Shown: positions 19,027 through 50,331, counted from the first letter of the stretch. The stretch: DNA of 56,041 nucleotides from Phycisphaerales bacterium UBA2266 (GCA_002347125.1 DDXG01000263.1:1-56041); one strand, 5' to 3'. Numbers and translations: made by a program. Notes: generated by a model not told the origin, from the sequence alone.

Positions 19027-19122
19027 GGTTGTTGGCAGGGCGATCTTCCGTGGTCGCACCGCAGCCTGGCCCCGTCCGACGGGGCCGAGACACCAGGAAC
19101 TGGAATACTCGAAGGGGCATAC

Positions 19123-20610: not shown

Positions 20611-20639
20611 TGCTGAACTGTGAGAAGGGTAACCCCTGA

Positions 20640-30924: not shown

Positions 30925-32097
30925 ATGAAGGATTACCTCAAGGAGAAGACACGGTTCGTGATGAAGACCGAGACGCTGATGGGCGACGGCATCGCCAAGG
31001 AATTGCCGGATGTGCTGGCGGCCTGGGAATGGTCGCGGGTGGGTCTGGTTGTGGACGGTGGTCTCTACCGGCACAACGACTACGCCCGGCAGGTTGCGGA
31101 GACCCTCCGACAGCGGCTGGAGCACGTGACGATGCTGATCGCCGACATGCCCGAGCCGACGTATGATTATCTTGACCAGACCCGGGGTGTGTTTGCGGAT
31201 CTGGACCTGGACTGTTTCGTGGGCATCGGGGGCGGCAGCACGCTGGATATTGCCAAGGGGTTGGCGACGCTCATGACCAACGAGGGCGCGGCCGTAAGCT
31301 ACCGGGGTTTCGGCAAGGTGAAGAACACGCCGCTGCCCGTTGTGGCCCTACCGTCCACGGCAGGGACAGGTAGTGAAGTGACTCCGTATGCGGTCTTCAT
31401 CGACACACAGCAGCAGTGGAAGTTCGGCATCAACAGCGAGCACAACTATCCGAAGCTGGCGCTGTACGATCCGCGTCTGCTGGACAGTTGCCCGGACCGA
31501 ATCTACGCATCGGCGGGAATGGACGCCATGACCCATACGTTGGAGAGCTTCGTCGCCAGAAATGCGACGGTGGTCTCGCGGATGTTCTCGAAACAGGCGT
31601 TCAAGCTGCTATTCCCAAACCTCAAGAGAGCGGCCGGCGGCGAACGGTCAACGGCGGTGAAGCTGAACCTGTTGCTTGGAGCCGGCTGCGCGGGGGTGGC
31701 CCTGATGAACAGCGGGGCCGGACCGGCCGGCGCACTAAGCTACCCTCTGGGCGTCTATTACGATGTGCCTCACGGACTGGCGGGTTCGGTCTTTCTGCCG
31801 GCGGTCATCCGGTACAACGTCGAAAACGGATACACGGACTACGCCGAACTGTACGACCTGGTCTGTGACGAGGCCTGCGCGACGGCGGCGGAGAAATCGT
31901 CTCGTTTCGCCGAGGCCATCGAGCAACTCAGCGACGAACTGGGCATCCCGACGGAATTGGGCGGCTTCGGCGTCAAGACGGACGAGGATTCCCGGCGGAT
32001 CATCGACCATTCCATGCAGCTCAAGGCGGCGTTTGAACAGAATCCCATCACTTTCGGCCAATCGGAGGTTGAGAGAATTGTCTATGCACTTAGCTGA
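30925..32097 (+). CDS. Iron-containing (group III) alcohol dehydrogenase
   Basis: VGIGGGSTLDIAKG, ALPSTAGTGSEVT and His-rich metal-site regions (DAMTHTLES, VPHGLA). Confidence 0.85.
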   Translation: MKDYLKEKTRFVMKTETLMGDGIAKELPDVLAAWEWSRVGLVVDGGLYRHNDYARQVAETLRQRLEHVTMLIADMPEPTYDYLDQTRGVFADLDLDCFVGIGGGSTLDIAKGLATLMTNEGAAVSYRGFGKVKNTPLPVVALPSTAGTGSEVTPYAVFIDTQQQWKFGINSEHNYPKLALYDPRLLDSCPDRIYASAGMDAMTHTLESFVARNATVVSRMFSKQAFKLLFPNLKRAAGGERSTAVKLNLLLGAGCAGVALMNSGAGPAGALSYPLGVYYDVPHGLAGSVFLPAVIRYNVENGYTDYAELYDLVCDEACATAAEKSSRFAEAIEQLSDELGIPTELGGFGVKTDEDSRRIIDHSMQLKAAFEQNPITFGQSEVERIVYALS

Positions 32098-33412
32098 AAA
32101 GAAGACCGTATCGCTGAGCTTCAGGCAGTCCGAGTATGTCTATGATCGGGCGCTGGAGGTGATCCCGATGGGCGCCTCGACGTTCAGCCGAAACCCTCAC
32201 CTGTTTGTGATCGGTGCATCGCCGCTCTATATCGACTCGGCGCGGGGCTGCCGCGTCCGGGACGTGGACGGCAACGAGTTCATAGATTACTCGATGGCGC
32301 TGAGCATCATCTTTCTGGGCTACGCCGAACCGCGGGTCAGTGCCGCGGCCAAGGCCGCCATTGACGACGGGCTCATCTTCACCCTCTCGTGCCCGCAGGA
32401 GTCGATTCTGGCGCGCACGATCGTCGATCTCGTCCCCTGCGCCGAGATGGTCCGTTTCTGCAAGAACGGCTCGGACTCATGCGAGGGGGCGGTTCGCCTG
32501 GCCCGCAGACATACGGGCAAGCTCAAGGTCATGACGGTAGGCGGGTACCACGGTTTCCATGACTGGTACATTGCCTCGACGGCCCGCCGAGAAGGTGTTC
32601 CGCCGGCGATGGCCGAGTGGGTGCTGCCGCACGCCTACAACGATATTGACGCCGTCGAACGGACGATCCGCACACAGGCCGGGGAGATCGCCGCGCTGAT
32701 TATGGAGCCGGTGATCAACATTGAGCCACGGCCGGGATTCCTTGAGAGGATTCGGGAGTTGACGTTGCGGCACAACATCGTACTGATCTTCGACGAGATG
32801 AAGACGGGCTTTCGCCTGTCGATCGGCGGGGCCCAGGCGTTCTTTGGCGTCGTGCCGGACCTGGCGGTCTTCGGCAAGGCGCTGTCCAACGGTTTTCCGC
32901 TGAGCGCCCTGGTGGGCAAGCGGGAACTGATGCGGCAGTTCGAGGATGAGAATTGTTTTCTGTCGGCCTCCTATGCCACGGAGAAGGCGTCCATCGCGGC
33001 GGCCCTCAAGACGCTTGAGATACTGGAGGGTGAGCCCGTGCTCGAACATGTCTGGTCGATGGGCGAGCGTCTCAAGGTCGGGATTGTGGAACGGATAGAG
33101 AGGCACCATCTCACAGCCAGCCTGAAGATTATCGGTTTTGCGCCGATGACGCATTTTGTCATCTCCGAGACGGCAGGATTCACCGTTGCCCAGATACGGT
33201 CCTTCATCCAGCAGGAGTCCGTCCGTCGGGGCGTCCTGTTCGTAGGCTACAACCATACCAGCTACGCGCACGGCCCCGCCGACATCGAGTACACGCTCGA
33301 CGTCTACGACGAGGTCTTCGCCCTGCTGAGTCGGCGTCTGGCGGATGGCATGCTGGCTGACCGCATCGAGGGCAGGACCATCAGTTCATTCGGAGTCAGG
33401 GGCATATCATGA
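32084..33412 (+). CDS. Class III PLP aminotransferase (glutamate-1-semialdehyde aminomutase-like)
   Basis: I moved the start to ATG 32084, a 14-nt overlap with the upstream gene. Motifs: GASTFSRNP, ALIMEPV, LIFDEMKTGFRLS (PLP Lys). Confidence 0.85.
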   Translation: MHLAEKKTVSLSFRQSEYVYDRALEVIPMGASTFSRNPHLFVIGASPLYIDSARGCRVRDVDGNEFIDYSMALSIIFLGYAEPRVSAAAKAAIDDGLIFTLSCPQESILARTIVDLVPCAEMVRFCKNGSDSCEGAVRLARRHTGKLKVMTVGGYHGFHDWYIASTARREGVPPAMAEWVLPHAYNDIDAVERTIRTQAGEIAALIMEPVINIEPRPGFLERIRELTLRHNIVLIFDEMKTGFRLSIGGAQAFFGVVPDLAVFGKALSNGFPLSALVGKRELMRQFEDENCFLSASYATEKASIAAALKTLEILEGEPVLEHVWSMGERLKVGIVERIERHHLTASLKIIGFAPMTHFVISETAGFTVAQIRSFIQQESVRRGVLFVGYNHTSYAHGPADIEYTLDVYDEVFALLSRRLADGMLADRIEGRTISSFGVRGIS

Positions 33413-35186: not shown

Positions 35187-35918
35187 ATGTACAGGAACCG
35201 ACGAATCCTTGGTCTGATCCCTGCCCGGGGCGGGAGCAAAGGATTGCCCGGAAAGAACATCCGACCCCTGTTAGGCAAACCCCTGATCGTCTGGACGGTT
35301 GAACAGGCTTGTGCGGCCGTGTATCTGGATCGTGTGATCGTCTCGACCGACGACGACCAGATCGCACGGATTGCCGCGGCGGCGGGCGCCGAGGCGCCGT
35401 TTGTCCGCCCGAACGACTTGGCCGCCGATACCTCGCTGATTATTGACACGGTAATCCATGTCCTCGACAGGCTCGCGCAGGACGGGGAGGCATTCAACTA
35501 TGTGGCCCTGCTTGAACCGACTTCACCGTTGCGGGAAGACGGCGATATCGACCGGGCCGTCACCACGCTCATCAACAATGAAGAGCGGGCCGACAGTCTG
35601 ATGTACATCGGCAAGGTGGTCCTTCAGAACCCGCTCATGGCCAAACGCATTGACACCGAGGGCTACCTGCATCCGTTTCTTGATGCATCGACCGACGGGC
35701 GGCGGCAGGAACTGCCCGACGCCTACATCCCCTACGGCGTATGCTATCTGTCGAAGACATCGGCCTTGCGGAAGCACCGCACGTTCTATCAGCCGAGAAC
35801 GCTGGCCCTGGTTACGCAGCGCTGGCAGAACTATGAGATCGATGATATCTGGGATTTCGTCTGCATTGAAGCTGTCATGCAGCGGATCGTCCACGACCAG
35901 CAGCGGGTAAGCCCATGA
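35187..35918 (+). CDS. neuA: Acylneuraminate/nonulosonate cytidylyltransferase (CMP-sugar synthetase, NeuA/LegF/PtmB family)
   Basis: ILGLIPARGGSKGLPGKNIRPLLGKPLIVWT...VSTDD...LEPTSPLR. Confidence 0.9.
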   Translation: MYRNRRILGLIPARGGSKGLPGKNIRPLLGKPLIVWTVEQACAAVYLDRVIVSTDDDQIARIAAAAGAEAPFVRPNDLAADTSLIIDTVIHVLDRLAQDGEAFNYVALLEPTSPLREDGDIDRAVTTLINNEERADSLMYIGKVVLQNPLMAKRIDTEGYLHPFLDASTDGRRQELPDAYIPYGVCYLSKTSALRKHRTFYQPRTLALVTQRWQNYEIDDIWDFVCIEAVMQRIVHDQQRVSP

Positions 35919-36958
35919 CCACGAAGATGCACGACCTCAAAGACCTCGACCACGCCGTATCCAGCAAAGGCGATCCGTACGAGACCCTGGCGGTGCACCT
36001 GGGGCCGGCGGTCCATGCGTATCGCCGCCGGTGGGACTTGGCGGGCAGGGGGGAACTGTTGCCCGAGTTTCCATTGCACCTGAATATCGAGATTGTGTAC
36101 GGGTGCAATCTGCGGTGCGAATTCTGCGCGCACAGCCGTCCCGACCGCAATATCAAGAACCGGACCTGCCGAGGCAAGCGGCTTTCGTTTGAACAATACA
36201 AGCGAATTATCGACGAGGGTCGGCAGCGCGATCTGTGCTCGGTGGCGCTCAATGGCTTCAACGAGCCGCTGCTCCAGAGGGACATCGCCGACTACGTCCG
36301 TTATGCGGCCGACGCGGGGATCCTGGAGGTCTCCCTGCATACGAACGCGCTGCTTCTGAACGAGTCGATGAGCCGGTTCCTGCTGGACTGCGGGCTCAAT
36401 ATTATCATGTTCTCGATCGACGCCTTCAGCCGCGAGACCTATTCGCAAATCCGCAGGGGTGGCGACTACGACACCGTTGTGAGCAACATAACCACCTTCC
36501 TCGAACTGAAGGGCCGCCTGGGACTGACATTGCCGTTGACGCGGGCCTCTTTTGTCAAGACGAAGGTCAACGCCCATGAAATGGAAGACTTCGTTGCGTT
36601 CTGGGACCGGAGAACCGACTACGTTATGCTCCAGGGTTTCTGTAATATGTTCGTCGACGAAGATGGCTACGACGCTGTCGAAGACCGATACCGCCTCGAC
36701 GACCAGCCGTTCGAGACATGTCATCTGCCATGGCAGCGGCTGAGCATCGCGGCCGACGGGGCGGTATTGCCCTGTTGCTCCTACTTCGGCCTGAACATGC
36801 CGGTCGGCCACATTGAAGAAGGCAGCCTCTACGACATCTGGCACGGTCCGCGGATGCGAGAGCTTCGCGGGACCGTCAACACGCAACGGCGGCCGGCGTC
36901 TTGCGACCGGTGCCGGCGCTCCGCCGTCGGCCGCAACTATCGGCCGAATCCATCATGA
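35915..36958 (+). CDS. Radical SAM enzyme with a C-terminal SPASM/twitch-type Cys cluster
   Basis: IEIVYGCNLRCEFCAH (CxxxCxxC). The C-terminal Cys cluster is CHLPWQRLSIAADGAVLPCCSY...CDRC. ATGA overlaps occur at both ends. Confidence 0.8.
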   Translation: MTTKMHDLKDLDHAVSSKGDPYETLAVHLGPAVHAYRRRWDLAGRGELLPEFPLHLNIEIVYGCNLRCEFCAHSRPDRNIKNRTCRGKRLSFEQYKRIIDEGRQRDLCSVALNGFNEPLLQRDIADYVRYAADAGILEVSLHTNALLLNESMSRFLLDCGLNIIMFSIDAFSRETYSQIRRGGDYDTVVSNITTFLELKGRLGLTLPLTRASFVKTKVNAHEMEDFVAFWDRRTDYVMLQGFCNMFVDEDGYDAVEDRYRLDDQPFETCHLPWQRLSIAADGAVLPCCSYFGLNMPVGHIEEGSLYDIWHGPRMRELRGTVNTQRRPASCDRCRRSAVGRNYRPNPS

Positions 36959-37629
36959 CGGCTGTTCTGACAAAGTACTTCGAGACATCTCTCGGCCGCT
37001 ACTTCTTCGATTATCCCAAACGGCACGCAGGGCGGATTCATGAGCGGTTTGTGGCTGGGGGTGATTTGTTCTTCAGCGACCTGGCTGCGAAACACCCCGC
37101 CCATGGGAGCCGCCGGCCGGACGACAGGGAACTGGTCGAGATGATCCAGCTTGATCCGTGCCTGGAAGCTGTTCTGCTCTACCGTGTGGAGCGAAGTCTC
37201 TTTCTTGACGATCCGGACGACCCGCTGCTGCCGTATCTGGCGGGTCTGATGCGGCTCAAGACCGGGATCGAGTTGTATTACAGCACGGAGATCGGGCCGG
37301 GCCTGAACGTCATGCACGGCATGGGCGTCGTCGTGGGGCCCCGGTACAAGATTGGACGCAACTTCACCATCAACCACGGCGCGACCATCGGCCAAAGCGG
37401 GGCCGACGAGCCGGAGTCCATCATCATCGGTGACAATGTCCGCATCTTCGCCGGGGCCAAGGTCATCGGCCGCGTGCGGATCGGCGACAACGTGCATATC
37501 GGAGCCAACGCCGTGCTGATTGACGATGCCGAGTCCAATTCGGTCTATCTTGGCGTCCCCGCCAGAAAGGTCCGGGACTTGTATCACGATTTTGAAGTCG
37601 TTCCACCTCCCTTATCGGCGCCATTGTGA
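36955..37629 (+). CDS. Hexapeptide-repeat O-acetyltransferase (serine acetyltransferase/CysE-like)
   Basis: I moved the start to ATG 36955 (ATGA overlap). Motifs: LLYRVERSLF...GIELYYSTEIGPGLNVMHGMGVVVGP...IGDNVRIFAGAKVIGRVRIGDNVHIGANAV. Confidence 0.8.
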   Translation: MTAVLTKYFETSLGRYFFDYPKRHAGRIHERFVAGGDLFFSDLAAKHPAHGSRRPDDRELVEMIQLDPCLEAVLLYRVERSLFLDDPDDPLLPYLAGLMRLKTGIELYYSTEIGPGLNVMHGMGVVVGPRYKIGRNFTINHGATIGQSGADEPESIIIGDNVRIFAGAKVIGRVRIGDNVHIGANAVLIDDAESNSVYLGVPARKVRDLYHDFEVVPPPLSAPL

Positions 37630-39731
37630 AGACAGAGCCAACGATCCATACCTGCCTGGCCGATACCAACTCGGTCGCGGCGTTGAACGGTCACGCAAGG
37701 GATTTCGTCCACAGGCTCGCGGCCAGATGCGGCATCGAACGGCCCATGCGCCATCCGAGCCATCCGGTCGGCGGCGAGCGGCCGGACATTGGGTGGGCAG
37801 ACCGGGTGCCCGCGGCCGTTGTTGAGACGGCCGTGTTGATCCGGCGCGCGGAGGCGATGCTGCTGGAGTTGTTCTCCGGGGGCAGACTCCATGGGACGGT
37901 CCACACATGTATCGGCCAGGAGTTCTCGGCGGTGGCCTTCGCCGCGGCCATGAGCGACGACGATATAGTATGCTCCAACCACCGGTGCCACGGCCACTAC
38001 ATCGCTTTGACGAATGACTGCGACGGCCTGGTTGCAGAACTGATGGGCAAGACGACCGGCCCCTGCGGCGGGGTCGGCGGCAGTCAGCACCTTTGCACCG
38101 GCCGCTTCTTCTCCAACGGTATTCAGGGGGGCATGGTCCCTGTAGCGGCGGGGATGGCCCTGGCGAGCAAGCTGCGCGGGCAGGAGGCCATCGTGACGGC
38201 CTTCATCGGGGACGGCACGCTTGGCGAGGGCATTGTCTATGAGACCCTCAATATCGCCTCCATAGAATCGTTGCCTCTCTTGATTGTCTGTGAGAACAAC
38301 TTCTACGCGCAGTCCACACCTCAAGACCTCGGATTGGCCGGGGATATTGCGGCCCGCGGGCGTGCATTCGAGGTGAAGACCTTCGCGGGGACGACCGACG
38401 ATCCGGCTGGACTCATGGACGTCGCCCGGCTGTCCGTCGAGTACGTCCGGACCCGCCGCCGGCCCGCTTTCTGCACGGTGGACACCTGGCGCATATCGCC
38501 GCATTCCAAGGGCGACGACCACCGCGATGCGGAAGAGTTGGCGCACCATGCGGCCACCGACCCGTTGAACCAGTTTCAGCAGAGCCACCCGGACCTGTGG
38601 GCATCCATGCGGTCGAGGGCCGACGCGACCGTGCAGACGGCCGTGGACCGTGCCGAGGCGGCGCCCCGGCCGAAGGTAGCCGACTACCTTGACGGGCCCG
38701 GGTCGATGCCGTCCGTTCAATGGAAACCTGCGGACAGAATCGAAAGACGCCAAGGCACGCTTATCAATGAGTTCTTCCTGGAGACGATGCAACAGGATGC
38801 CTCGATGCTATTTATCGGGGAAGACGTTTTGGATCCCTACGGCGGGGCCTTCAAGGTGGCCGCCGGATTGTCTGAGGCATTCCCACAGCGCGTGTTCTCG
38901 ACGCCGATCAGCGAGGCGGCGATCACCGGAATCGCCAACGGCCTGGCTCTGGCGGGGTTTCGCCCGTACGTCGAAATCATGTTTGGCGATTTCATCACCC
39001 TGTCGCTGGACCAGATCATCAACCACGCCTCCAAGTTCCACCACATGTACAACCGGCAGGTTCAGTGCCCGGTGGTCATACGTACACCCATGGGCGGGCG
39101 TCGCTGCTACGGCCCGACCCACTCGCAGACACTCGACAAGCTGCTGCTTGGTATCGACAATGTGACGGTCATTGCACTGAACCGCCTCGTCGATCCTCGC
39201 CACGTCTACCGGAGCATTCATCACCACGAGCGACATCCCGTTGTTGTGATCGAGAACAAGACTGACTACGCCCGTCGCATCGGCGATGCAGAGATCACCG
39301 GCTATTCGCGCGAGCAGACGGTCGAGGACTACCCAACGACACGCATTCGCCCAATACGCTCGCGGCCCACGTTGACCGTCGTGGCATACGGCGGCGCGGC
39401 GGATATCGCCATAGACGGCATTGATCTGCTATTCGATGACCTTGACTTCAAGACGGAACTGCTTGTGCCGTCGAAGATTCACCCGCTTGATCTTGGGGCC
39501 ATACTCGAATCGGTGCGGACCACCGGCAGGCTCCTGGTGGTCGAGGAAGGGTCCGCCTTCGCGGGTCTGGGGGCTGAGATCATCGCCTCGGCGGCCGAGA
39601 CTCTTGGGCATTCGTTCACGGCGCGGCGCGTGGCTGCGAAGGCCGTACCCATCCCCGCGGCGGCGGAGCTTGAGGACTGCGTCCTGCCTGGTGTTGCGGA
39701 CATCCTGACGGCTGCACGGCAACTGCAATGA
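37626..39731 (+). CDS. Thiamine-diphosphate-dependent 2-oxoacid dehydrogenase E1 component, alpha and beta subunits fused (701 aa)
   Basis: The ThDP motif GDGTLGEG...ENN lies at nt 38208-38300. The beta-type region is LFIGEDVLDPYGGAFKVAAGLSEAFPQRVFSTPISEAAITGIANGLALAGFRPYVEIMF, followed by a C-terminal transketolase_C-like part. The start forms a GTGA overlap. Confidence 0.85.
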   Translation: MKTEPTIHTCLADTNSVAALNGHARDFVHRLAARCGIERPMRHPSHPVGGERPDIGWADRVPAAVVETAVLIRRAEAMLLELFSGGRLHGTVHTCIGQEFSAVAFAAAMSDDDIVCSNHRCHGHYIALTNDCDGLVAELMGKTTGPCGGVGGSQHLCTGRFFSNGIQGGMVPVAAGMALASKLRGQEAIVTAFIGDGTLGEGIVYETLNIASIESLPLLIVCENNFYAQSTPQDLGLAGDIAARGRAFEVKTFAGTTDDPAGLMDVARLSVEYVRTRRRPAFCTVDTWRISPHSKGDDHRDAEELAHHAATDPLNQFQQSHPDLWASMRSRADATVQTAVDRAEAAPRPKVADYLDGPGSMPSVQWKPADRIERRQGTLINEFFLETMQQDASMLFIGEDVLDPYGGAFKVAAGLSEAFPQRVFSTPISEAAITGIANGLALAGFRPYVEIMFGDFITLSLDQIINHASKFHHMYNRQVQCPVVIRTPMGGRRCYGPTHSQTLDKLLLGIDNVTVIALNRLVDPRHVYRSIHHHERHPVVVIENKTDYARRIGDAEITGYSREQTVEDYPTTRIRPIRSRPTLTVVAYGGAADIAIDGIDLLFDDLDFKTELLVPSKIHPLDLGAILESVRTTGRLLVVEEGSAFAGLGAEIIASAAETLGHSFTARRVAAKAVPIPAAAELEDCVLPGVADILTAARQLQ

Positions 39732-40957
39732 CGACCTGCGTACAGGAAATCCATGTTCCCCGCCAGACCGCCAACGACGCCGTCGCCACGGTTGTCGCCC
39801 TGAGATACGGCAACGGCGATGAAGTCCGTGCGGGGGATGAACTGTTGGACCTTGAGACGAGCAAGACCGTGTTCTCCATTACGGCCGAGTCCGGCGGCTA
39901 TGTGGAGTACTTCTGCGAACCGGAGCAGGATGTCGCCGTCGGCGCGGTGGTGGCGAGGGTATATTCACAGAAACCCGGTGCCGCCTCTGGGGCCGCCGGC
40001 ACACAGAGGCTGTGTGGTTCGGCTTCGGCCGTTCGTTTCTCGCCGGGAGCCCTGCGACGCCTGGGCGAACTGGGCATGGACCGAAGTATGTTCTCGCAAC
40101 ACGACCTCGTGACGGTCCACGATGTGAACGATCGCGTCGTCGGCTTGTCTGTGGAGTCCGCCGATGTCCGCTTTGAGAAGCTCTCCCGCGCTAAGCAGAC
40201 CGAGATCTCGCGGCTCCGGGAGGTGCAGTCGCGCGGGCTGACCGGCTCGGTCACCATCAAGGCGGACGTCCGGGGGGTGCTCGGCCGCCTCAATCGGCAC
40301 ATGACCTTCTTCCAGGATTCACTGCTGCCGCTGGTTGTCTACGAATCGTCCCGTCTTCTGCGGTGTTACGAGCGGCTCAACGCATACTTGGACGATGGAC
40401 GCATCGCCCTGCATAACGGGGTTCATGTGGGCATTGCGATAGACATCGACGATGGTCTAAAGGTTGCGAAGATTGTCGACGCCGACCGCCTGAGCTTCCC
40501 CGGGATCGAAGCGGAGATACGCCGCCTGACCGGGCGATACCTGGACAAGACGCTCACACCGTCCGAGTTGTCCGGGGCAACATTTACCGTTACGGACCTT
40601 TCGGCTGAAGGCGTGTACAGCTTCATCCCGCTTATCGACGCGGGTCAGTCGGCCATCCTGGCCATCGCCGCCGTCGATCCCGCCGAGGCGTGTTGTCTGC
40701 TGACGCTTACGTTTGACCACCGTGTCAGCGAAGGCAGGACGGCGGCCCGGTTCCTCGCGGAGCTCTCAAGACGCATTGAGAGTCACCGCAGCACCGGTGC
40801 GTCGGCGCCCACGGATCGTGCTCAGACGGTTCGGTGCGCCCGCTGTCTCAAGACACTTGCTGAAGACCGCTCCTCAAGGGGACCCGGGATGATACGAGTC
40901 CTTAACCATGAGGCCAACGAGGTCCTCCTGTGCCGATCGTGCTTTGACGGCTGGTAG
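39728..40957 (+). CDS. E2-type acyltransferase: lipoyl-attachment domain + peripheral-subunit-binding-like segment + 2-oxoacid dehydrogenase acyltransferase catalytic domain + C-terminal Cys4 tail
   Basis: The lipoyl motif is LLDLETSKTVFSITAESGGYV (Lys at nt 39863-39865). RFSPGALRRLGELGMD resembles an E3/E1-binding domain. The catalytic motif is FDHRVSEG (canonical DHRxxDG). The tail is CARC...CRSC at 40835-40957. Confidence 0.8.
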   Translation: MTTCVQEIHVPRQTANDAVATVVALRYGNGDEVRAGDELLDLETSKTVFSITAESGGYVEYFCEPEQDVAVGAVVARVYSQKPGAASGAAGTQRLCGSASAVRFSPGALRRLGELGMDRSMFSQHDLVTVHDVNDRVVGLSVESADVRFEKLSRAKQTEISRLREVQSRGLTGSVTIKADVRGVLGRLNRHMTFFQDSLLPLVVYESSRLLRCYERLNAYLDDGRIALHNGVHVGIAIDIDDGLKVAKIVDADRLSFPGIEAEIRRLTGRYLDKTLTPSELSGATFTVTDLSAEGVYSFIPLIDAGQSAILAIAAVDPAEACCLLTLTFDHRVSEGRTAARFLAELSRRIESHRSTGASAPTDRAQTVRCARCLKTLAEDRSSRGPGMIRVLNHEANEVLLCRSCFDGW

Positions 40958-40973
40958 GCCATCGAGCATCACC

Positions 40974-41603
40974 ATGCAGACTACGATTGACATTCATCAA
41001 GTCCGCGAGATCGTCGCTTCGTTTGTGGGCGAGGGGCCTTCGGCGCTTCAAGAGGATACCGACATCGGACGCACGGCCGTCCGCAGTTCGGTGCTTCTGC
41101 ACAGAATGTACGCACGGCTGGCGGAGGCGGGTCTGAAAGTCCCTGCCGGGCGGCGTCCCAGGACCTTTGGTGAGTTGATCGCCATGACCTATGAGGCGGC
41201 ACCCGCCCCCTCCGCGGGGCCGCGGGCCCCGGCGCCGTCGGCGGGCACCGCGGCCGCCGTGGCTGTGGGTATCGACATGGAGGATGTGGCCAACCTGCCG
41301 GCGGCGGCGGATTATCGCACAGATCCATTCTATACACAGAACTTCTCGCCCGCGGAGATCGCATATTGTGTCTTGCAGGCCGATCCGCGCCGGAGCTTCG
41401 CCGGGCGCTTCTGCGCCAAGGAGGCCGTTGTAAAAGCCGACAATGGCTATCGCGATGTGCCGTTCAATCGTCTGGAAATCGAGACGGACTCCGCCGGGCG
41501 ACCCGGCTTTGGGGACTTCGCCCTCTCGATTTCTCACACCGACGACAAAGTGGTTGCGGTCGCCGTGCGGATTACGCCGCCGACCGGGATTGTCCGAACA
41601 TGA
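40974..41603 (+). CDS. AcpS-type 4'-phosphopantetheinyl transferase with an extra ~75-aa N-terminal helical domain (possible carrier domain) and a Pro/Ala linker
   Basis: I moved the start to ATG 40974. PPTase motifs from nt ~41259: VGIDMEDV, FAGRFCAKEAVVKA, LSISHTDDKVVAVAV. The N-terminal domain (40974-41190) contains DIGRTAVRSSVLL at the position where carrier proteins carry the DSL serine. That resemblance is weak. Confidence 0.7.
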   Translation: MQTTIDIHQVREIVASFVGEGPSALQEDTDIGRTAVRSSVLLHRMYARLAEAGLKVPAGRRPRTFGELIAMTYEAAPAPSAGPRAPAPSAGTAAAVAVGIDMEDVANLPAAADYRTDPFYTQNFSPAEIAYCVLQADPRRSFAGRFCAKEAVVKADNGYRDVPFNRLEIETDSAGRPGFGDFALSISHTDDKVVAVAVRITPPTGIVRT

Positions 41604-43042
41604 GCTATATTCCCCGACTCGAATACGTCTTCTGCGTTCCGCGGGTCTACCAACTCGACTGGCACGTGCCGCTGTACCGCTACATGAACACCATTGGCTT
41701 GCGCCCGCGGATACTGATCGGCGACCTGGATGTCCCGGGGTATCTCAACGGTCACGGGATCGCCTACGAGAGCCTCCGCGAACTGCCCGAGTGCTATGAT
41801 GTCTTCATACCACTGACGACAGGTTTCATGCCCTTTACCCGGTACTGGCTGGAGAAGAGCCTTGCCCGCGGCAAGTTCAACTGCTGGGTTCTGTTGACGG
41901 CGCTGCCGTTTCGCTGTGAGGGGGAGTTCATCTGCCCGACACAGACGCGTTTCCTGCATGCGATGTGCGTGACGGATCAATTGACTATCGACATCGCCCG
42001 CACGATCAACAGCGAAGTCCTCATGCTCAATACGGGCCATCCCCTCTGGGACGACTTCGGCAGACCGTCATTCCACACCGGCGTACAGGAGATACGCAGC
42101 CGCTACGGCCCACGGCTGCTGGTGGTTTCGATTGACCATGACATAGCGAACGACTACCTGTATGCCGAACAGGTCACCCAGGTTGCCCAGGGTCTGGGTT
42201 TTCGCGTCGTGGTGCAGGCCCACCCGGGGATTGTGGACCGCGTGCCCGCATCCCTTCGGGGGCTGCTCAATCCGGGGTTCGATCGATACGCACTGTTTCG
42301 GGCGGCCTCACACGCGATCTGCTTCGTCCTCAGCACGATGAGTTCCGAATGCCTCTATTTGGGCACAAGACTGGCATGCAAGCCCCTCGGGATAGGCCCT
42401 GGTTGTACAAACCCAGGGGACTACTGCTGGTTCAGTGACATCGACCAGTGGTACGAATATCATCGCCCGCTTTTTGACCGGCGATTTCTCGATGCAGTTG
42501 CGATGGTGTATGACGAGGCCACGCTGGTCGAATTTCTGCGCAGCGACGGCCCTGCCATGGCGCATGACCATGTGGCCGGCCTGTTCGGCTGGCCTTGTGT
42601 GCCGTGCTACAGCGAGAATGTCCTGCGTGTGATCGAGCAGGCGTACAGCCGCCCGGAGACGGTGGATCATACGGTCCGCAAGACGCGGGCCGAGACGGGC
42701 ATGACCGTGGATTTCTCCTGGAAGCTGGAGGGCCCCCTCTCACAGTTCGGTGGCTTGAGGGATGCGCCGGCTCTGACGCGGGCCGCCGCCGAACTGCTCA
42801 AACAAGGCCGTATCGACGCTGCACAGAACTGCCTGCGGAGGGCCGAGCGGTTCAGCGGAACCGAACACTTCGACTTCGTCCAGTACGCCCAGGCCCTGTG
42901 CCAGGCCATGACGGGTAACTTGGCGGAGGCGCGAAAGAACATTTACCGCGCACTGTTCGTCAATCCGAGTTGTCCGAGCTACATCGAACTGAGAGACAGA
43001 ATCAATGCCCACCTCGCCTGCTCGTCGGTGGCCGGTTCGTGA
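41600..43042 (+). CDS. Hypothetical protein (480 aa) with C-terminal TPR-like helices; family not recognised
   Basis: I moved the start to ATG 41600 (ATGA overlap). GC3-rich codon usage is consistent with its neighbours. The C-terminus (AAELLKQGRIDAAQNCLRRAERF...ALCQAMTGNLAEARKNIYRALFVNP) is TPR-like. Confidence 0.65.
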   Translation: MSYIPRLEYVFCVPRVYQLDWHVPLYRYMNTIGLRPRILIGDLDVPGYLNGHGIAYESLRELPECYDVFIPLTTGFMPFTRYWLEKSLARGKFNCWVLLTALPFRCEGEFICPTQTRFLHAMCVTDQLTIDIARTINSEVLMLNTGHPLWDDFGRPSFHTGVQEIRSRYGPRLLVVSIDHDIANDYLYAEQVTQVAQGLGFRVVVQAHPGIVDRVPASLRGLLNPGFDRYALFRAASHAICFVLSTMSSECLYLGTRLACKPLGIGPGCTNPGDYCWFSDIDQWYEYHRPLFDRRFLDAVAMVYDEATLVEFLRSDGPAMAHDHVAGLFGWPCVPCYSENVLRVIEQAYSRPETVDHTVRKTRAETGMTVDFSWKLEGPLSQFGGLRDAPALTRAAAELLKQGRIDAAQNCLRRAERFSGTEHFDFVQYAQALCQAMTGNLAEARKNIYRALFVNPSCPSYIELRDRINAHLACSSVAGS

Positions 43043-43050
43043 ACACAGGG

Positions 43051-44340
43051 ATGCTTGACGCCCATTCATCAGGTCGTACGGCCGTACTGAGCAACGGTGC
43101 TCACATACCGGTTCCGCCTGCCGAGCGGCCGCAGGCGAATACAGGATCTACAGCGACCGGCCCCAGGATTCGCCGGCGGGGTCTGCGTTGCACGATTGTC
43201 CTCTGTGGCGGCGAGGACGCAACCCGATTGGAGGCCGCCCTGCGGGCCTGGGCCCCCGTGGTGGTTGACTTCGAGCACGAGGTGCTGCTGGTCAATGACG
43301 GGCATCTAAGCCTGAATGTTACGGCGCTGGGTTCTATCATGGACAACCTCGCGGTCCTGACGCCACCCAGGGATGCAACGCCCGAACAGACGACGCGGCT
43401 GGCGGCCGAGAGGGCCGGCGGCAAGTACCTCGTGTTCGCGCCGGAGCGGGTCCTCCTGGATCGCCTGACGATTCGCAAGCTCGCCGGACGACTCGAGGTA
43501 ACGGGCCTGGCGGCGACGACCCGCGACGGGGCCGCCATTGTGAACCGAAACACGCTACTGGAATACACCGGTCTTTCTGAACTGTTGGAACGAAGCGCCG
43601 CAGATGGCGAATCGACGCGCCGTCGTCAGTATCACCATCACATGTTCGCCGAACTGGCGCATCATATCGACCTCAAGGGCAAGCGAGTGCTTGTTCTGGG
43701 GTGCTCCTACGGCATGGAGTGCGAGTTGATGCGTCTGGCCGGGGCCTCGCGGGTCGTCGGGGTGGATACCTACCCCTGGCTCGGCGTCTATTACGGCCAC
43801 CACGCCATCGAGTATGTCCGGACATCAGCCGAACAGTTGCCCTTTGGCGACGGTTCTTTTGACGTATGCTTCTCGATAGCCACATTCGAGCATATCCCCG
43901 ATCCATGGGCCGCGGCCGAGGAGGCCCTGCGAGTCACGGCCAGCGGCGGATTACTCTACATCCATGCCGCACCACTGTGGAACAGCCCACACGGCCATCA
44001 CAAGGACCATGTGCTGCCGGACCCCTGGATACACCTGGCCATGCCATCGGCCGAACGGATGAAGGCATTCTACCGAGACATCCTGGACCGGCCCGCCGAG
44101 GGGGCCACCGTGGCCGATGTGATCGACTGGCTGTACCACCACAACGACTGCAACCGCAGGCCGCTGGGCGACTACCACAGGATTCTGCGGCGGATGCTGG
44201 ACGATGGCGAGCCGATCCGTGTGGAGTTCACCATGAAACCGCGTGGGATGCTGACCTTGCCGATCCGCGGGCAATTGACCGACTACACCGACGATGAACT
44301 GCTTACGGAGTCCTTGCTGTGGATTCTCAGGCGAACGTAG
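43051..44340 (+). CDS. Class I SAM-dependent methyltransferase with a degenerate GT2-like N-terminal domain
   Basis: I moved the start to ATG 43051. N-terminus: CTIVLCGGEDATRLEAALRAW...LLVNDG...GKYLVFAPE. Methyltransferase region: KRVLVLGCSYGMECELMRLAGASRVVGVD...FDVCFSIATFEHIPDP...LRVTASGGLLYI. Confidence 0.75.
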   Translation: MLDAHSSGRTAVLSNGAHIPVPPAERPQANTGSTATGPRIRRRGLRCTIVLCGGEDATRLEAALRAWAPVVVDFEHEVLLVNDGHLSLNVTALGSIMDNLAVLTPPRDATPEQTTRLAAERAGGKYLVFAPERVLLDRLTIRKLAGRLEVTGLAATTRDGAAIVNRNTLLEYTGLSELLERSAADGESTRRRQYHHHMFAELAHHIDLKGKRVLVLGCSYGMECELMRLAGASRVVGVDTYPWLGVYYGHHAIEYVRTSAEQLPFGDGSFDVCFSIATFEHIPDPWAAAEEALRVTASGGLLYIHAAPLWNSPHGHHKDHVLPDPWIHLAMPSAERMKAFYRDILDRPAEGATVADVIDWLYHHNDCNRRPLGDYHRILRRMLDDGEPIRVEFTMKPRGMLTLPIRGQLTDYTDDELLTESLLWILRRT

Positions 44341-45311
44341 CTCACGGGATATCCGACATATCGAATCGAACCGAACCGGTGCATGTGCTCGTGACAGGAG
44401 GGGCCGGCTATATCGGCTCGATTCTCGTGCCGGCGCTGCTGGCGCGGCGCCACCGCGTCACGGTTATTGACAATATGCTCTACCACCAGGCGTCCCTGCT
44501 CGATTGCTGTGGTGATCCGGCCCTTGAGGTCGTTCGGGGTGACGCCAGGGACCGGGACCTGATCGCCCGGAGCCTCAAGACGGCGGACGTCATCATGCCG
44601 CTGGCCTGTCTGACGGGGGCGCCTCTGTGTGACCGCGACCCCATTGCCGCCAAGACCACGAATCTCGACGCAATCCGGATGCTGCTTGAGTTGCGGGGCC
44701 GCAGCCAGTGGATCATCTTCCCGACGACCAACAGCGGTTACGGTGTCGGTGTCGAGGGCGTCTATTGCACGGAAGAAACGCCGCTGAATCCGATCAGCCT
44801 CTACGGCCGCCTCAAGAGCGACGCTGAGACCGCCATACTCGATGCAGGCAACGCCGTTACGTTCCGACTGGCGACGGTCTTCGGGGCCAGCCCGCGAATG
44901 CGGCTCGACCTGCTCGTCAATGACTTCACGTATCGGGCGGTGACCGACCGGGCGATTGTGCTCTTTGAGGCCCATTTCAGGCGCAACTTCATCCACGTTC
45001 GGGACGTTGCCGCCGCCTTTGCCCACGCGCTGGATTGCTTCGAGGCGATGAAGGACCAGCCGTACAACGTGGGCCGGTCCGACGCCAACTGCTCCAAACT
45101 GGAACTGTGCGAGCACATCCGACAGGTGGTCCCGGACTTCTACTTCACCGAGGCCCGTATCGGCGAGGATCCCGACAAACGTGACTACATCGTCAGCAAC
45201 GAGAAGATCGAGGCAACGGGTTTTCGGGCGGCCCACTCCCTTGACGATGGCATTCGGGAACTGGTGAAGGCCTATAGAATCATCCGCAAGAGTACCTACG
45301 CAAACGTATGA
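44319..45311 (+). CDS. NAD-dependent sugar epimerase/dehydratase/reductase (extended SDR)
   Basis: VLVTGGAGYIGSILVPALLARRHRV and the catalytic YGRLK. The start is uncertain (GTG 44319, overlapping upstream by 22 nt, or GTG 44379). Confidence 0.8.
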   Translation: MDSQANVAHGISDISNRTEPVHVLVTGGAGYIGSILVPALLARRHRVTVIDNMLYHQASLLDCCGDPALEVVRGDARDRDLIARSLKTADVIMPLACLTGAPLCDRDPIAAKTTNLDAIRMLLELRGRSQWIIFPTTNSGYGVGVEGVYCTEETPLNPISLYGRLKSDAETAILDAGNAVTFRLATVFGASPRMRLDLLVNDFTYRAVTDRAIVLFEAHFRRNFIHVRDVAAAFAHALDCFEAMKDQPYNVGRSDANCSKLELCEHIRQVVPDFYFTEARIGEDPDKRDYIVSNEKIEATGFRAAHSLDDGIRELVKAYRIIRKSTYANV

Positions 45312-46117
45312 CGCCGCGAGAACGACTCCAGGAAAGGTCCGAATGGGTGCGTGCCGAAACGCTCCGGCTGCACGCCCGGGCCCCGGAGACTCGGATCGCT
45401 TCATCGCTGTCCGATGTTGAGATACTCGTGGCCCTCTGCTATGGGGGCTTTCTCGATTCCACGGCTGACAACCAGGATAACAGCGAGCGCGACCATCTGA
45501 TTGTCAGCAAGGCGCACGGGGCGGTCTCGCTATATCCCATACTGGCCGATCGAGGCTTCTTCAGTCTTGATGAGCTACAGCGCATCGGCCGGGAGGATGC
45601 ACTGCTGTGCCCGATGCCCGACTGCACCATCCCAGGTATCGAGGCGATCAACGGGTCGCTCGGCCACGGGGTGGGCGTTGCATGCGGCATGGCCTTGGGC
45701 AAGCGGGCCAAGGGTCTGAAATCCACGGTCTTCGTCGTCTGCGGCGATGGGGAACTGAACAGCGGGGCGGTCTGGGAGGCGGTGATGTTCGCGGCACGCC
45801 ATCGCCTGGCGAATGTCGTTCTGATCGTGGACAACAACCGAACCTCCATGCTGGGCCGCCAGAAAGACATCCTGGCGCTCGAACCGCTCGAAGACAAGTT
45901 CGCCGCGTTCGGCTGGGTCGTGCGGACATGCGACGGGCACGACCTCGACGCCCTGTGCGAAGCCATCGGCGGCCTGAAGTGCGAAACCCGTAACGCTCCC
46001 AAGGTCCTCATCGCGAACACTGTCAAGGGCAAAGGCGTGCCGTCGCTGGAAGATGACCCGCTCTGCCACGTTCGATCGCTGCGGCTCGAATACATCGAAG
46101 AGATACTGAGCCGATGA
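45308..46117 (+). CDS. Transketolase, N-terminal (ThDP-binding) subunit
   Basis: DHLIVSKAHGAVSLYPILA, GSLGHGVGVACGMAL, CGDGELNSGAVWEAVMFAARHRLANVVLIVDNN (GDG...NN). An ATGA overlap joins it to the upstream gene. Confidence 0.85.
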   Translation: MTPRERLQERSEWVRAETLRLHARAPETRIASSLSDVEILVALCYGGFLDSTADNQDNSERDHLIVSKAHGAVSLYPILADRGFFSLDELQRIGREDALLCPMPDCTIPGIEAINGSLGHGVGVACGMALGKRAKGLKSTVFVVCGDGELNSGAVWEAVMFAARHRLANVVLIVDNNRTSMLGRQKDILALEPLEDKFAAFGWVVRTCDGHDLDALCEAIGGLKCETRNAPKVLIANTVKGKGVPSLEDDPLCHVRSLRLEYIEEILSR

Positions 46118-47085
46118 AGGAACTGCCACTCCAGACCATGCGGGATGCCCTGATCGAGGGGCTTTGCCGGAGGATGCGCACCGACGGCCGCACGTTCTTT
46201 CTCAGCGCCGATCTGGGTGCCCCGGCCCTGGACCGTCTGCGGACGGACTTTCCTGACCGCTTCATCAACGTAGGCATTGCCGAGCAGAATCTTGTGAACG
46301 TAGCTACAGGGCTGGCGCTGGAGGGTTTTACCGTGTATGCCTATGCGATCGCATCGTTTCTGTCGATGCGGGCATTCGAGCAGATTCGTGTGAATCTCGC
46401 CCTGATGTCGCAGACACGGCCGCTCAACGTCAACCTGGTGGGGCTGGGCGGGGGCGTCAGCTATGATCTCTCCGGGCCGACCCACCATTGTCTTGAAGAC
46501 CTTTCGATTATTCGCACACTGCCCAACCTCATGCTCTTGTCGCCAAGCGACTCGATCATGGCGGGCCGTCTGGCGGATTTCTCGATCTGTATGCGGCGGC
46601 CCAAGTATATCCGCCTCGACGGTAAGCCCTTGCCCTGCATCTACGGTCAGAAGTCCGTCTTTGACTGGGCCAGGGGCTTCCACGAACACACCGTCGGCGA
46701 CGATCTCTGCATAGTGGCGACCGGCTACATGACGCACAAGGCCTTGGGGATCGCCCGGCAACTGGCCGGGCGGATCCGAGTCGGCATCATCGACCTGTTC
46801 ATGCTGAACCCCGTTGACGGCGCCGCCTTGGCCCAAGCCATGAGCCGATACACCTGCGTCGTCACATTGGAGGAGGGGTTCATCGGCCGAGGCGGTCTGG
46901 ACAGCCTTGTGGCGAGCTGTGTAAGGGAATACGGGCTCAACGTGGAGCTGAAGGCCCTGGGTTTCAAGGATGAATACCTGTTCGCTCCGGGTGCGCGGGA
47001 ATCGCTCTACCGCCGACACGGTCTTGGCCAGGAGCAGATTGTCGATCTGATAGCGAGCCTCGTTCCGGCCGCCCATTCCGCATGA
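46114..47085 (+). CDS. Transketolase, C-terminal (pyrimidine-binding) subunit
   Basis: FINVGIAEQNLVNVATGLALEGFTVYAYAIASFLSMRAFEQIR, GPTHHCLEDLSIIRTLPNLMLLSPSD. An ATGA overlap joins it to the upstream gene. Confidence 0.85.
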   Translation: MKELPLQTMRDALIEGLCRRMRTDGRTFFLSADLGAPALDRLRTDFPDRFINVGIAEQNLVNVATGLALEGFTVYAYAIASFLSMRAFEQIRVNLALMSQTRPLNVNLVGLGGGVSYDLSGPTHHCLEDLSIIRTLPNLMLLSPSDSIMAGRLADFSICMRRPKYIRLDGKPLPCIYGQKSVFDWARGFHEHTVGDDLCIVATGYMTHKALGIARQLAGRIRVGIIDLFMLNPVDGAALAQAMSRYTCVVTLEEGFIGRGGLDSLVASCVREYGLNVELKALGFKDEYLFAPGARESLYRRHGLGQEQIVDLIASLVPAAHSA

Positions 47086-49789: not shown

Positions 49790-49794
49790 ACCTC

Positions 49795-50331
49795 ATGTCA
49801 GTGATTCATGTGGAGCCGACCCAACTGGAGGGTGTCGCGGACATCCGGATCGACGCTTTCGCCGATCACCGCGGCCGCTTCATCGAAACGTACAACCGCG
49901 GTCTCTATGCCCGCCACGGTATCGACATCGATTTCGTGCAGGACGACCTGTCCATCTCCGGTCGCGATGTGCTGCGGGGGTTCCACGGCGACAATTGCAC
50001 GCGGAAACTCGTCTCCTGCATCCACGGACGCATCTTCTTCGTCGTCCTCAACTGTGACCGCACATCCGACCAGTGCGGACAGTGGCAATCGTTTACGCTC
50101 GACGGCGACGAGCCCAGGCAGATTCTCATCCCCCCGCGTTTTGCCAATGCGTACCTGGCCCTCAGCGACAAGATCGTCTTCACATACAAGCAATCGGCCT
50201 ATTACGACCGGTCCCGCCAGTTCTCTGTCCGGTGGAACGACCCGCGACTGGCAATTGACTGGCCCATCCAGCATCCTATTCTGTCCGAACGTGATCGAAC
50301 GTCGCCTTTCTTCGCGGAGTTGGCCGGATGA
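49795..50331 (+). CDS. RmlC-fold NDP-4-keto-6-deoxy-sugar 3,5-epimerase
   Basis: DHRGRFIETYN, VLRGFHGD, and a cupin-type C-terminus. The start could be ATG 49795 or TTG 49786 (TTGA overlap). Confidence 0.85.
   Translation: MSVIHVEPTQLEGVADIRIDAFADHRGRFIETYNRGLYARHGIDIDFVQDDLSISGRDVLRGFHGDNCTRKLVSCIHGRIFFVVLNCDRTSDQCGQWQSFTLDGDEPRQILIPPRFANAYLALSDKIVFTYKQSAYYDRSRQFSVRWNDPRLAIDWPIQHPILSERDRTSPFFAELAG

Follow-up and report, generated by a model that had tools for sequence, protein, structure and literature searches.

A candidate lipoyl-dependent acylation cassette with a carrier-AcpS fusion protein in a flagellar glycosylation island of a Phycisphaerales bacterium and in surface-sugar gene clusters of other phyla

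The loading of a carrier protein by a thiamine diphosphate (ThDP)-dependent enzyme and a lipoyl-bearing acyltransferase (E2) is known from secondary metabolism. In the Qnc/Nap/Scl systems, a ThDP enzyme, a lipoyl-E2, an acyl carrier protein (ACP), and a phosphopantetheinyl transferase (PPTase; SclP) jointly produce glycolicacyl-S-ACP (PMC6335953), and in the pepteridine pathway of Photorhabdus, an E1 resembling that of pyruvate dehydrogenase (PDH) and the E2-T-C fusion protein Plu2796 convert 2-oxobutyrate to a propionyl group on the T domain, with dihydrolipoamide dehydrogenase (E3) borrowed from primary metabolism and the product abolished by mutation of the carrier serine (PMC5384830). With respect to glycans, ACP genes are common in the flagellin glycosylation islands of Enterobacteriaceae, in a study where “lipoyl” means fatty acylation (PMC4875605), and the genetic basis of N-glyceroyl and possible N-glycolyl groups has been stated to be unresolved (PMC5378307). 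The enzymes adding non-acetyl acyl groups to legionaminic and pseudaminic acids and to many exopolysaccharides are largely unknown, and such groups influence antigenicity, recognition by phages and the immune system, and how flagella work. Here, we describe a four-gene cassette that provides an entry point to this problem, found at positions 36955-41603 of a 56,041-nucleotide stretch of DNA from Phycisphaerales bacterium UBA2266 (GCA_002347125.1 DDXG01000263.1:1-56041); this whole stretch is hereafter called the window.

The cassette consists of a hexapeptide-repeat (LbH) acyltransferase gene followed by genes for an E1 with fused alpha and beta parts, a lipoyl-E2, and a fusion of a carrier protein (CP) with an AcpS-type PPTase (CP-AcpS), the last three being referred to as the trio. 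We propose that these genes bring an acyl group to a sugar via the carrier, and put the probability of this reading at just under 0.6. Passage of the acyl group through lipoamide and a phosphopantetheine arm to a sugar, as suggested in a first-pass annotation of the window made from the DNA sequence, is the best-supported reading because the trio is not housekeeping, the carrier-PPTase is linked to glycan clusters, and a carrier fold with a conserved serine is predicted; the sugar acylated, the acyl group, and the adjacent LbH protein as the consumer are what we infer from there. The case is made from the predicted catalytic motifs of E1, E2, and AcpS, the modeled carrier fold with its conserved serine, obligatory gene linkage, and one fusion of E2 with the carrier.

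The genes are closely coupled on the plus strand. The LbH stop and the E1 start overlap in GTGA (37626-37629), E1 and E2 overlap in ATGA (39728-39731), and the E2 stop at 40957 is separated by a gap of 16 nt from the next ATG at 40974, all as first annotated; the gene after CP-AcpS, with its start at 41600, likewise overlaps the CP-AcpS stop via ATGA. Public gene calls for the same contig (ENA, JGI, Logan) give trio products of 701, 409, and 209 aa, identical in length to those predicted in the window.

The third trio protein (209 aa, 40974-41603) is the most distinctive component. The first-pass annotation had described an AcpS-type PPTase with an additional helical N-terminal domain of ~75 aa and a Pro/Ala linker, a description borne out by a Pfam ACPS match confined to the C-terminal half and a linker at residues 76-95. 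In the AlphaFold model of the N-terminal domain (residues 1-75, 40974-41198; pLDDT 85.5), helices span residues 7-18, 39-51, and 65-74, and helix II begins at Ser39 (codon 41088-41090), the predicted phosphopantetheine attachment site. The top 50 Foldseek matches of this model in the PDB are all acyl carrier proteins (TM 0.53-0.73), the best PDB sequence match of the domain profile is Aquifex ACP (2ehs; E 0.023), with Ser39 placed on the phosphopantetheinylated serine of the DSL motif, and Ser39 is kept in 149 of the 150 best representatives, 130 of which include the AcpS domain. The extra domain, which had been singled out earlier for comparison with ACP folds, appears from these models to be itself the carrier, with the conserved Ser39 correctly placed. 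It is followed by the Pro/Ala-rich flexible linker (APAPSAGPRAPAPSAGTAAA; 41199-41258), which has pLDDT <50 at residues 78-92 and differs in length between homologues.

The AcpS domain proper (residues 96-209 plus the stop codon, 41259-41603) matches Pfam ACPS (9e-12) and scores 45.7 bits against TIGR00556 (cut-off 45.35), and Foldseek relates it to the PPT domain of fungal fatty acid synthase (FAS) and to bacterial AcpS with probability 1.00 and TMt 0.7-0.78, the fungal domain ranking first among its structural matches. In the GxD...E metal site and the KEA..K motif, G99, D101, E103, K149, E150, and K154 are invariant or nearly so, with D101, K149, and E150 invariant. An Sfp-type two-domain PPTase was considered and rejected, given that the N-terminal half has an ACP fold and there is no second PPT lobe. 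Clustered at 50%, the carrier-AcpS family drawn from 1.84 billion proteins comprises 319 representatives at E<=1e-3, of which 212 remain at E<=1e-10. A hydrophobic tail resembling a membrane anchor ends 91 of 130 (~70%) homologues (e.g., P0006, L004:10001-10714), which suggests that in Bacteroidota the carrier acts at the membrane, sometimes beside an AT3 membrane acyltransferase; the protein of the window has no such anchor.

Conservation of the trio is strict. In a survey of genome loci restricted to one genome per species, E1, E2, and CP-AcpS (31-58% identity) share one gene order and one strand in 52 loci, that is, in every locus with a contig long enough, and the order is kept also in metagenome loci L074-L077 (the metagenome scan yielded mainly ordinary AcpS genes, with L074-L078 informative). 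In one protein, P0196 (625 aa), the lipoyl domain, the E2 catalytic domain, the CP, and AcpS are found on a single chain. The hosts are mostly Chitinophagaceae and other Bacteroidota, joined by Pirellulales, a delta-proteobacterium, Geobacteraceae, Sulfuricurvum, Campylobacterales, Saganbacteria, Chthoniobacteraceae (Verrucomicrobiota), Acidobacteriaceae (Acidobacteriota), and the alphaproteobacteria Rhodopila and Lichenihabitans. In the Pirellulales locus (L007), synteny with the window extends from the Fe-dependent alcohol dehydrogenase (Fe-ADH) to the GHMP kinase, at 48-83% identity.

The E1 gene (37626-39731, 701 aa) encodes Pfam domains E1_dh (residues 69-351; 3.8e-46, 158 bits), Transket_pyr (379-548), and Transketolase_C (577-693), and because all three lie on one chain, the protein is read as an alpha-beta fusion (alpha, 69-351; beta, 379-693) of the heterotetrameric-E1 kind. 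The fusion and the GDG...NN motif had been recognized in the first-pass annotation, and the motif was located exactly where it had been placed, at 38208-38300 (GDG(X)25NN, translation GDGTLGEGIVYETLNIASIESLPLLIVCENN); within the family, IGDGTLGEG...CENN is at least 90% conserved (49 sequences). Two further segments stand out in the same 49 sequences. In the alpha part, PHSKGDD (38499-38519) belongs to a stretch, aHSKGDD, kept across the family, and we take its His-Ser to correspond to the catalytic His/phospho-loop position of PDH E1 alpha (YRxHGHSMSDP motif). In the beta part, GPTHSQ (39111-39128) lies in GYGPTHSQ, at least 90% conserved, and its histidine presumably corresponds to H128-beta of the Geobacillus (G.) stearothermophilus E1p. 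That residue of the G. stearothermophilus enzyme contacts pyruvate (PMC2663715).

The E2 gene (39728-40957, 409 aa) encodes a lipoyl domain (Pfam Biotin_lipoyl, residues 8-77), a linker, a catalytic acyltransferase domain (2-oxoacid_dh, 150-353), and a tail similar to a Zn ribbon. The lipoylation motif ETSKT (residues 43-47, 39854-39868; Lys46 codon 39863-39865) aligns with ETDK of a solved E2o, and the E, S, and K of the family motif fEtSKt are each at least 90% conserved (55 members). The catalytic motifs, from FTVTD (Thr at the Ser/Thr position) to DHRVSEG (residues 330-336, catalytic His331), span 40583-40735 and align with FTISN and DHRIIDG of solved E2 chains, the family consensus being FTiTDLS and FDHRvTeG. 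The lipoyl-lysine and the DHRxxxG histidine of the earlier annotation thus stand, and the subunit-binding-like segment (residues 103-139, RFSPGALRRLGELG...) resembles, by eye, a peripheral subunit-binding domain (PSBD), with a family-conserved FS..A core and no match to Pfam E3_binding. Neither the models of known E2 proteins nor the solved E2o and E2p chains match this protein beyond residue 354, and the C-terminal tail that follows carries CxxC(370-373)...CxxC(402-405) at 40835-40942 (family pattern C.kC...iCqsC). By these alignments, this Cys4 tail is specific to the family and foreign to canonical E2 proteins, and possibly forms a Zn ribbon or a docking element.

The best-scoring curated NCBIfam equivalog models for the two proteins are those of PDH, and all scores fall below their cut-offs, to about half or less: 198.5 vs 393.85 for E1 alpha-y, 189.1 vs 321 for E1 beta, and 104.8 vs 722 and 101.5 vs 449 for E2. 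Because of these scores and the conserved, non-canonical Cys4 tail, the trio is, by sequence criteria, neither a housekeeping PDH nor an acetoin dehydrogenase, and the concern raised earlier that it might simply be one of these is largely answered. The PDB bit scores are the sole usable sequence signal on the 2-oxoacid specificity of E1; among solved structures, the alpha part scores 108 bits with PDH E1 alpha and ~59 bits with the branched-chain enzyme (BCKDH alpha), and this greater likeness to PDH favors a C2-C4 acyl unit (acetyl, propionyl, or glycolyl).

The genes surrounding the trio point to sugar acylation. Context was counted in the 36 loci whose contigs extend 3 kb or more on each side: an LbH gene is found in 33, an LbH or AT3 gene in 34, and a GT2 or GT4 gene in 30. 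In 23 loci, the gene directly upstream of E1 encodes a WcaF-family LbH protein (208 bits vs 192), which adjoins the trio also in the Acidobacteriaceae, Rhodopila, and Chthoniobacteraceae loci, and in L063 an AT3 gene lies directly 3' of the trio. The usual order in Bacteroidota is GT4, LbH, E1, E2, CP-AcpS, GT2; in the Saganbacteria locus it is NeuC, LbH, NeuB, DegT, PseB-like, E1, E2, CP-AcpS, CMP-transferase. The association with nonulosonic acid genes put forward for the window is reproduced in L007, L072, and L050, the only other loci with NeuB-type linkage, and does not extend to most copies, which lie in Bacteroidota polysaccharide loci.

In the window, the gene directly upstream of E1, and translationally coupled to it, encodes a CysE/EpsC-like LbH protein of 224 aa (36955-37629, plus strand; P0212 in public assemblies) with Pfam Hexapep at 6.7e-12 and 116 bits against NCBIfam EpsC (cut-off 150). 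It is the sole LbH protein detected in the island, and a member of the same subfamily is the only LbH protein in L155, a legionaminic-type flagellin island of Thermodesulfobacteriota. For these two reasons, an attractive reading is that it is a LegH-equivalent N-acyltransferase and that the cassette alters the N-acyl group of the nonulosonic acid. Two further loci, L157 and L158, share the flanks of the window, with NeuB, the CMP-transferase, and the radical SAM (rSAM)-SPASM gene on one side and, on the other, the genes for a 480-aa orphan protein, an epimerase, a B12-rSAM enzyme, a split transketolase, DegT, an RmlC-like epimerase, a GHMP kinase, and a nucleotidyltransferase (NTP-transferase). 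Since both loci keep these flanks and lack LbH as well as the trio, LbH and the trio behave as one four-gene insertion.

Additional partners are encoded in other lineages. The Sulfuricurvum operon (L009:3596-9523) consists of genes for a lipoyl synthase (270 bits vs cut-off 203) and a lipoate-ligase-like protein, both directly upstream of E1, then E1, E2, CP-AcpS, and an AhpD/CMD-family CxxC protein; because this operon carries its own lipoylation genes, the trio E2 is expected to be lipoylated and active. An AhpD-like gene (Pfam CMD 9.6e-16, TIGR00778) follows CP-AcpS directly in L009 as well as in a delta-proteobacterial contig (L008, 10759-11085) and a Campylobacterales contig (L011, 2390-2719), and its product may re-oxidize the dihydrolipoyl arm in place of E3.

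In the mechanism that we propose, the AcpS domain would first move phosphopantetheine from coenzyme A (CoA) to Ser39 of the carrier, on its own or a neighboring subunit. E1 would then use ThDP to decarboxylate a small 2-oxoacid and reductively acylate the lipoyl-Lys46 of E2, a step put forward because of the chemistry of the family and the presence of all the required motifs. The E2 catalytic domain (His331, Thr289) would hand the acyl group from dihydrolipoamide to the phosphopantetheine thiol of the carrier rather than to CoA, and a sugar acyltransferase would then attach it to a nucleotide-sugar or glycan at an amino or hydroxyl position. This last enzyme would probably be the coupled LbH protein here and a WcaF-type LbH or AT3 protein elsewhere, and the target in the window would probably be the legionaminic/sialic-type nonulosonic acid of the flagellar glycosylation island. 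Finally, dihydrolipoamide would be re-oxidized by the cell's own E3 or, in the loci of delta/epsilon type, perhaps by the AhpD-like protein. Extended to the family at large (at least 212 carrier clusters in about eight phyla), the proposal becomes that of a widespread cassette providing non-CoA acyl donors to sugar acyltransferases via a self-priming, often membrane-anchored carrier-AcpS protein, which we advance tentatively, at odds slightly short of even.

Several observations weigh against this proposal. The carrier assignment concerns a domain with a carrier fold and a conserved serine, short of a proven ACP: the fold argument comes from predicted structures, there is no Pfam PP-binding (PF00550) match, the best match to an ACP sequence is weak (E 0.023), and hhalign of the domain profile with E. 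coli AcpP gives a probability of 1.7%, with helix I alone aligned. Because sequence likeness to ACPs is this weak, the assignment draws on fold prediction, serine position, and conservation. That E2 acylates the carrier in place of CoA is something we infer from gene linkage, one fusion protein, and analogy. LbH genes are common in glycan clusters, and the 33 loci with an LbH gene come mostly from Bacteroidota, possibly sharing one ancestral arrangement; in L009 and L073, there are no acyltransferase or glycan genes within 5-10 kb, the trio of L073 standing alone. The LbH subfamily of the window, of the type found in nonulosonic acid clusters, occurs also without E1, E2, and CP-AcpS in L154-L156 (Pedobacter, the Thermodesulfobacteriota flagellin island L155, and a groundwater contig), which makes the LbH protein as consumer the weakest link in the argument; it may be the ordinary acetyl-CoA-dependent N-acetyltransferase of the pathway. 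Domain scans of selected long ORFs (~100 aa or more, judged likely genes) found no E3 or other Pyr_redox-type product in the window, and none was seen among the annotated neighbor genes of related loci. Finally, were the acyl group plain acetyl, the gain over acetyl-CoA would be hard to see.

The alternative that survives best keeps the machinery and changes the donor, with E1 acting in the manner of the transketolase-type Qnc/Nap/Scl enzymes or of acetoin dehydrogenase and cleaving a ketose phosphate or another alpha-hydroxyketone, or using hydroxypyruvate, to give a glycolyl-like C2 unit and an N-glycolyl-type nonulosonic acid. The only experimentally studied ThDP/lipoyl-E2/ACP/PPTase system yields glycolicacyl-S-ACP, cells are without a glycolyl-CoA pool, which makes a case for a dedicated generator, and a possible N-glycolyl legionaminic acid, its genetic origin not known, has been reported from Tannerella forsythia UB4 (PMC5378307). 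However, the trio E1 is of the PDH type (E1_dh, 158 bits) and has no Pfam match to Transketolase_N, which is found instead in the separate split transketolase of the island, and no Tannerella locus is among the matches; we regard this donor as unlikely.

Ranked after it, and likewise unlikely, is an arrangement in which E1 and E2 are dedicated to producing acyl-CoA, CoA itself accepting the acyl group, the LbH protein uses the acyl-CoA, and CP-AcpS serves some other purpose, either priming a carrier encoded elsewhere or, through AcpS, loading acyl-phosphopantetheine from acyl-CoA onto its own carrier. CoA is the acceptor for all characterized E2 cores of 2-oxoacid dehydrogenases, this E2 has canonical catalytic motifs, LbH sugar acetyltransferases of the CysE, WcaF, and PglD types normally take acyl-CoA, and the LbH subfamily of the window functions elsewhere without the trio. 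Against this, CP-AcpS is collinear with E2 in all 52 loci, with zero counter-examples, and P0196 unites E2, CP, and AcpS in a single chain. Nor was another carrier or carrier-dependent enzyme detected in the window: the long-ORF scans found no nonribosomal peptide synthetase (NRPS) or polyketide synthase domains and no carrier-dependent enzyme (KS, C, or A domain), and a six-frame search with E. coli AcpP and the N-terminal domain profile found no second carrier protein, in agreement with the first-pass annotation, which had reported neither E3 nor a stand-alone ACP.

Two other readings fare worse than these. A device chiefly for redox purposes, in which 2-oxoacid oxidation charges the E2 lipoyl arm for an AhpD-like oxidoreductase (in peroxide defense or some other reduction) and the carrier is an acyl sink, could draw on the AhpD/CMD-family gene directly after CP-AcpS in L008, L009, and L011, on the Sulfuricurvum operon without glycan genes, and on the reduction of M. 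tuberculosis AhpD by the lipoyl-E2 DlaT; yet no AhpD-like gene is present in the window or in most loci, the glycan-cluster context is overwhelming, and such a device would not require a special carrier equipped with a PPTase, which makes this reading very improbable. That an ordinary pyruvate or acetoin dehydrogenase lies in the island by chance is hardly credible even though the curated families closest to it are those of PDH (E1 alpha, E1 beta, and E2) and a shared E3 would make one in cis unneeded, given scores of about half or less of every equivalog cut-off, a fused E1, a Cys4-tailed E2, and CP-AcpS always next, the embedding of the trio among, and its translational coupling to, glycan genes, its absence from the otherwise syntenic L157 and L158, and its presence with its own lipoylation genes in Campylobacterota, which generally use ferredoxin-dependent oxidoreductases instead of 2-oxoacid dehydrogenase complexes.

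The proposed acylation cassette lies in a window of ~62% G+C in which flagellar genes (FlgE, FlgI, FlgN, FlgK, and an FlgL-like gene of the flagellin family) are followed by a long glycosylation island on the plus strand that includes genes for NeuB, scoring 467 bits and so exceeding the NeuB_NnaB cut-off, and for NeuC (421 bits). The early part of the island encodes two fusions of TPR and glycosyltransferase domains, a CBS-dehydratase fusion, a DegT aminotransferase, a B12-rSAM enzyme, Fe-ADH, and a class-III aminotransferase, and the middle part GFO- and SDR-type oxidoreductases (PtmA-like), a CMP-sugar cytidylyltransferase, the radical SAM/SPASM protein, and the LbH acyltransferase, with the trio after it. 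The genes 3' of the trio are those for the 480-aa orphan, a methyltransferase, an epimerase, the split transketolase, the second B12-rSAM enzyme, and DegT, and the distal end comprises the RmlC-like epimerase, GHMP kinase, and nucleotidyltransferase genes.

Right after the FlgL-like gene, 19015-22858 encodes candidate flagellin glycosyltransferases in the form of TPR-GT1 and GT2-TPR fusions and a stand-alone TPR protein; a Maf (MptE-like) gene was not observed anywhere in the window. The NDP-sugar 4,6-dehydratase/epimerase encoded at 25929-27605, which is weakly LegB-like, is extended at the N terminus by ~200 aa that include a CBS domain; Campylobacter-type pathways instead carry the CBS pair on the nucleotidyltransferase PtmE. 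The island also encodes two cobalamin-dependent radical SAM enzymes (28807-30891 and 47082-48587), the first being KedN5-like (a C-methyltransferase family), in addition to the radical SAM/SPASM protein (35915-36958), and this set of three suggests C-methylation or other radical chemistry on sugars or acyl groups. The Fe-ADH, which is lactaldehyde-reductase-like, and the class-III aminotransferase, similar to glutamate-1-semialdehyde aminomutase, occupy 30925-33412, are kept in L007, and might make or tailor an acyl or amino substituent.

Downstream of the trio, the 480-aa protein (41600-43042) is without relatives in Pfam or the PDB and has only five homologues in a set of 5.8 billion proteins, always in such islands beside the epimerase and the split-transketolase/GHMP-kinase block, with the trio present or absent; its QAHPG might be a sialyltransferase-like HP motif, a candidate suggested by sequence. 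As a consumer of the acyl carrier it was rejected, having five homologues and no PDB or Pfam relative and recurring in islands without the trio. The split transketolase (45308-47085) consists of N and C halves encoded by separate overlapping genes and matches Transketolase_N. The surrounding block (44319-45311 and 47082-52059: epimerase, B12-rSAM, DegT, RmlC-like epimerase, GHMP kinase, NTP-transferase), kept in L007, L072, L157, and L158, probably makes a second nucleotide sugar, heptose-like or branched, independently of E1 and E2. The split transketolase was also considered, and rejected, as a second, Qnc-style donor for E2, since it recurs in islands without the trio; because both the 480-aa orphan and the split transketolase are present in L157 and L158, where the trio is missing, they are assigned to another module. 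On the minus strand, 52029-55874 contains seven small ORFs (110-167 aa) with no Pfam match and with third-position G+C lower than that of the island genes.

The same trio in surface-sugar clusters of many phyla suggests an undescribed way of supplying acyl groups for surface sugars. If the proposal is true, the cassette would be an unrecognized source from which nonulosonic acids, flagellin glycans, and exopolysaccharides receive unusual N- or O-acyl groups (e.g., glycolyl or propionyl), and the logic by which E1 and E2 load a carrier would spread from a few antibiotic pathways into envelope biogenesis. CP-AcpS would be a minimal, small, self-priming ACP-AcpS fusion. The lipoate-dependent system is, moreover, found in unexpected lineages, Campylobacterota and Saganbacteria, which to our knowledge are largely without lipoate-dependent enzymes of this type. 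The trio genes are currently annotated as pyruvate dehydrogenase components and “PPTase superfamily protein,” and such annotation would mislead metabolic reconstructions of metagenome-assembled genomes.

Comparison with known systems shows which parts of this logic are new. In the open-access literature that was searched, no account of an E1/E2/carrier cassette serving glycan biosynthesis came up, and subscription journals may contain one; the broader statement made earlier, that no route using an E1/E2/PPTase set had been described, is incorrect, because the Qnc/Nap/Scl (PMC6335953) and pepteridine (PMC5384830) pathways of secondary metabolism are precedents. The Qnc/Nap/Scl systems (QncN, QncL, and QncM; SclQ1-4 and SclP; tetrahydroisoquinoline and scleric acid) are likened to the trio by the description of their components: a ThDP enzyme with PP, Pyr, and TK-C domains, lipoyl and E2 catalytic domains, a dedicated small ACP, and a PPTase gene. 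There, the acyl group passes from lipoamide to a carrier and not to CoA, and no E3 is encoded in the cluster, the same logic as proposed for the trio. The partition of domains differs, in that the Qnc fusion joins the Pyr/TK-C part with E2 whereas the trio joins E1 alpha with beta and ACP with AcpS; the Qnc/Nap/Scl donor is a ketose phosphate (transketolase-like) whereas the trio E1 is PDH-type by Pfam; and the consumer is an NRPS C domain, as opposed to the proposed sugar LbH or AT3 acyltransferase in a glycan cluster. With a different consumer, and a likeness drawn from component descriptions, the trio is not filed as a member of the Qnc family. Plu2796 of the pepteridine pathway and P0196 of the trio family are both E2-carrier fusions, but in pepteridine synthesis an NRPS T domain is followed by a C domain that acylates a pterin, and, unlike in the trio, there is no AcpS fusion, Cys4 tail, or glycan context.

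Outside secondary metabolism, the pyruvate, acetoin, and branched-chain dehydrogenase complexes (E1 alpha2-beta2, E2, E3) share the E1 and E2 families and catalytic motifs with the trio, which departs from them in its fused E1, the lack of E3, the Cys4 tail of E2, scores below cut-off, the obligatory CP-AcpS, and the glycan-cluster location. In the Dlt system (DltA, DltC, and DltB) and in flagellin islands with ACP, FabG, and LuxE-type genes, a dedicated carrier feeds an envelope or glycan acyltransferase, as proposed here; those carriers are, however, loaded with ATP by adenylating ligases or by FAS enzymes and have no PPTase fusion, in contrast to the lipoyl-dependent oxidative decarboxylation proposed for the trio. 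The alpha chain of fungal type I FAS, similarly to CP-AcpS, carries an AcpS-type PPT and its carrier on one polypeptide, but is a megasynthase of ~1,800 aa, compared with a minimal two-domain protein of 209 aa whose homologues are often membrane-anchored. The loading of a carrier by E1 and E2 was thus already known in antibiotic pathways, and what is new here is the context (glycans and a flagellin island), the architecture (an ACP-AcpS fusion, a Cys4-tailed E2, and a fused E1), and the partners (LbH or AT3, an AhpD-like protein, LipA, and a lipoate ligase).

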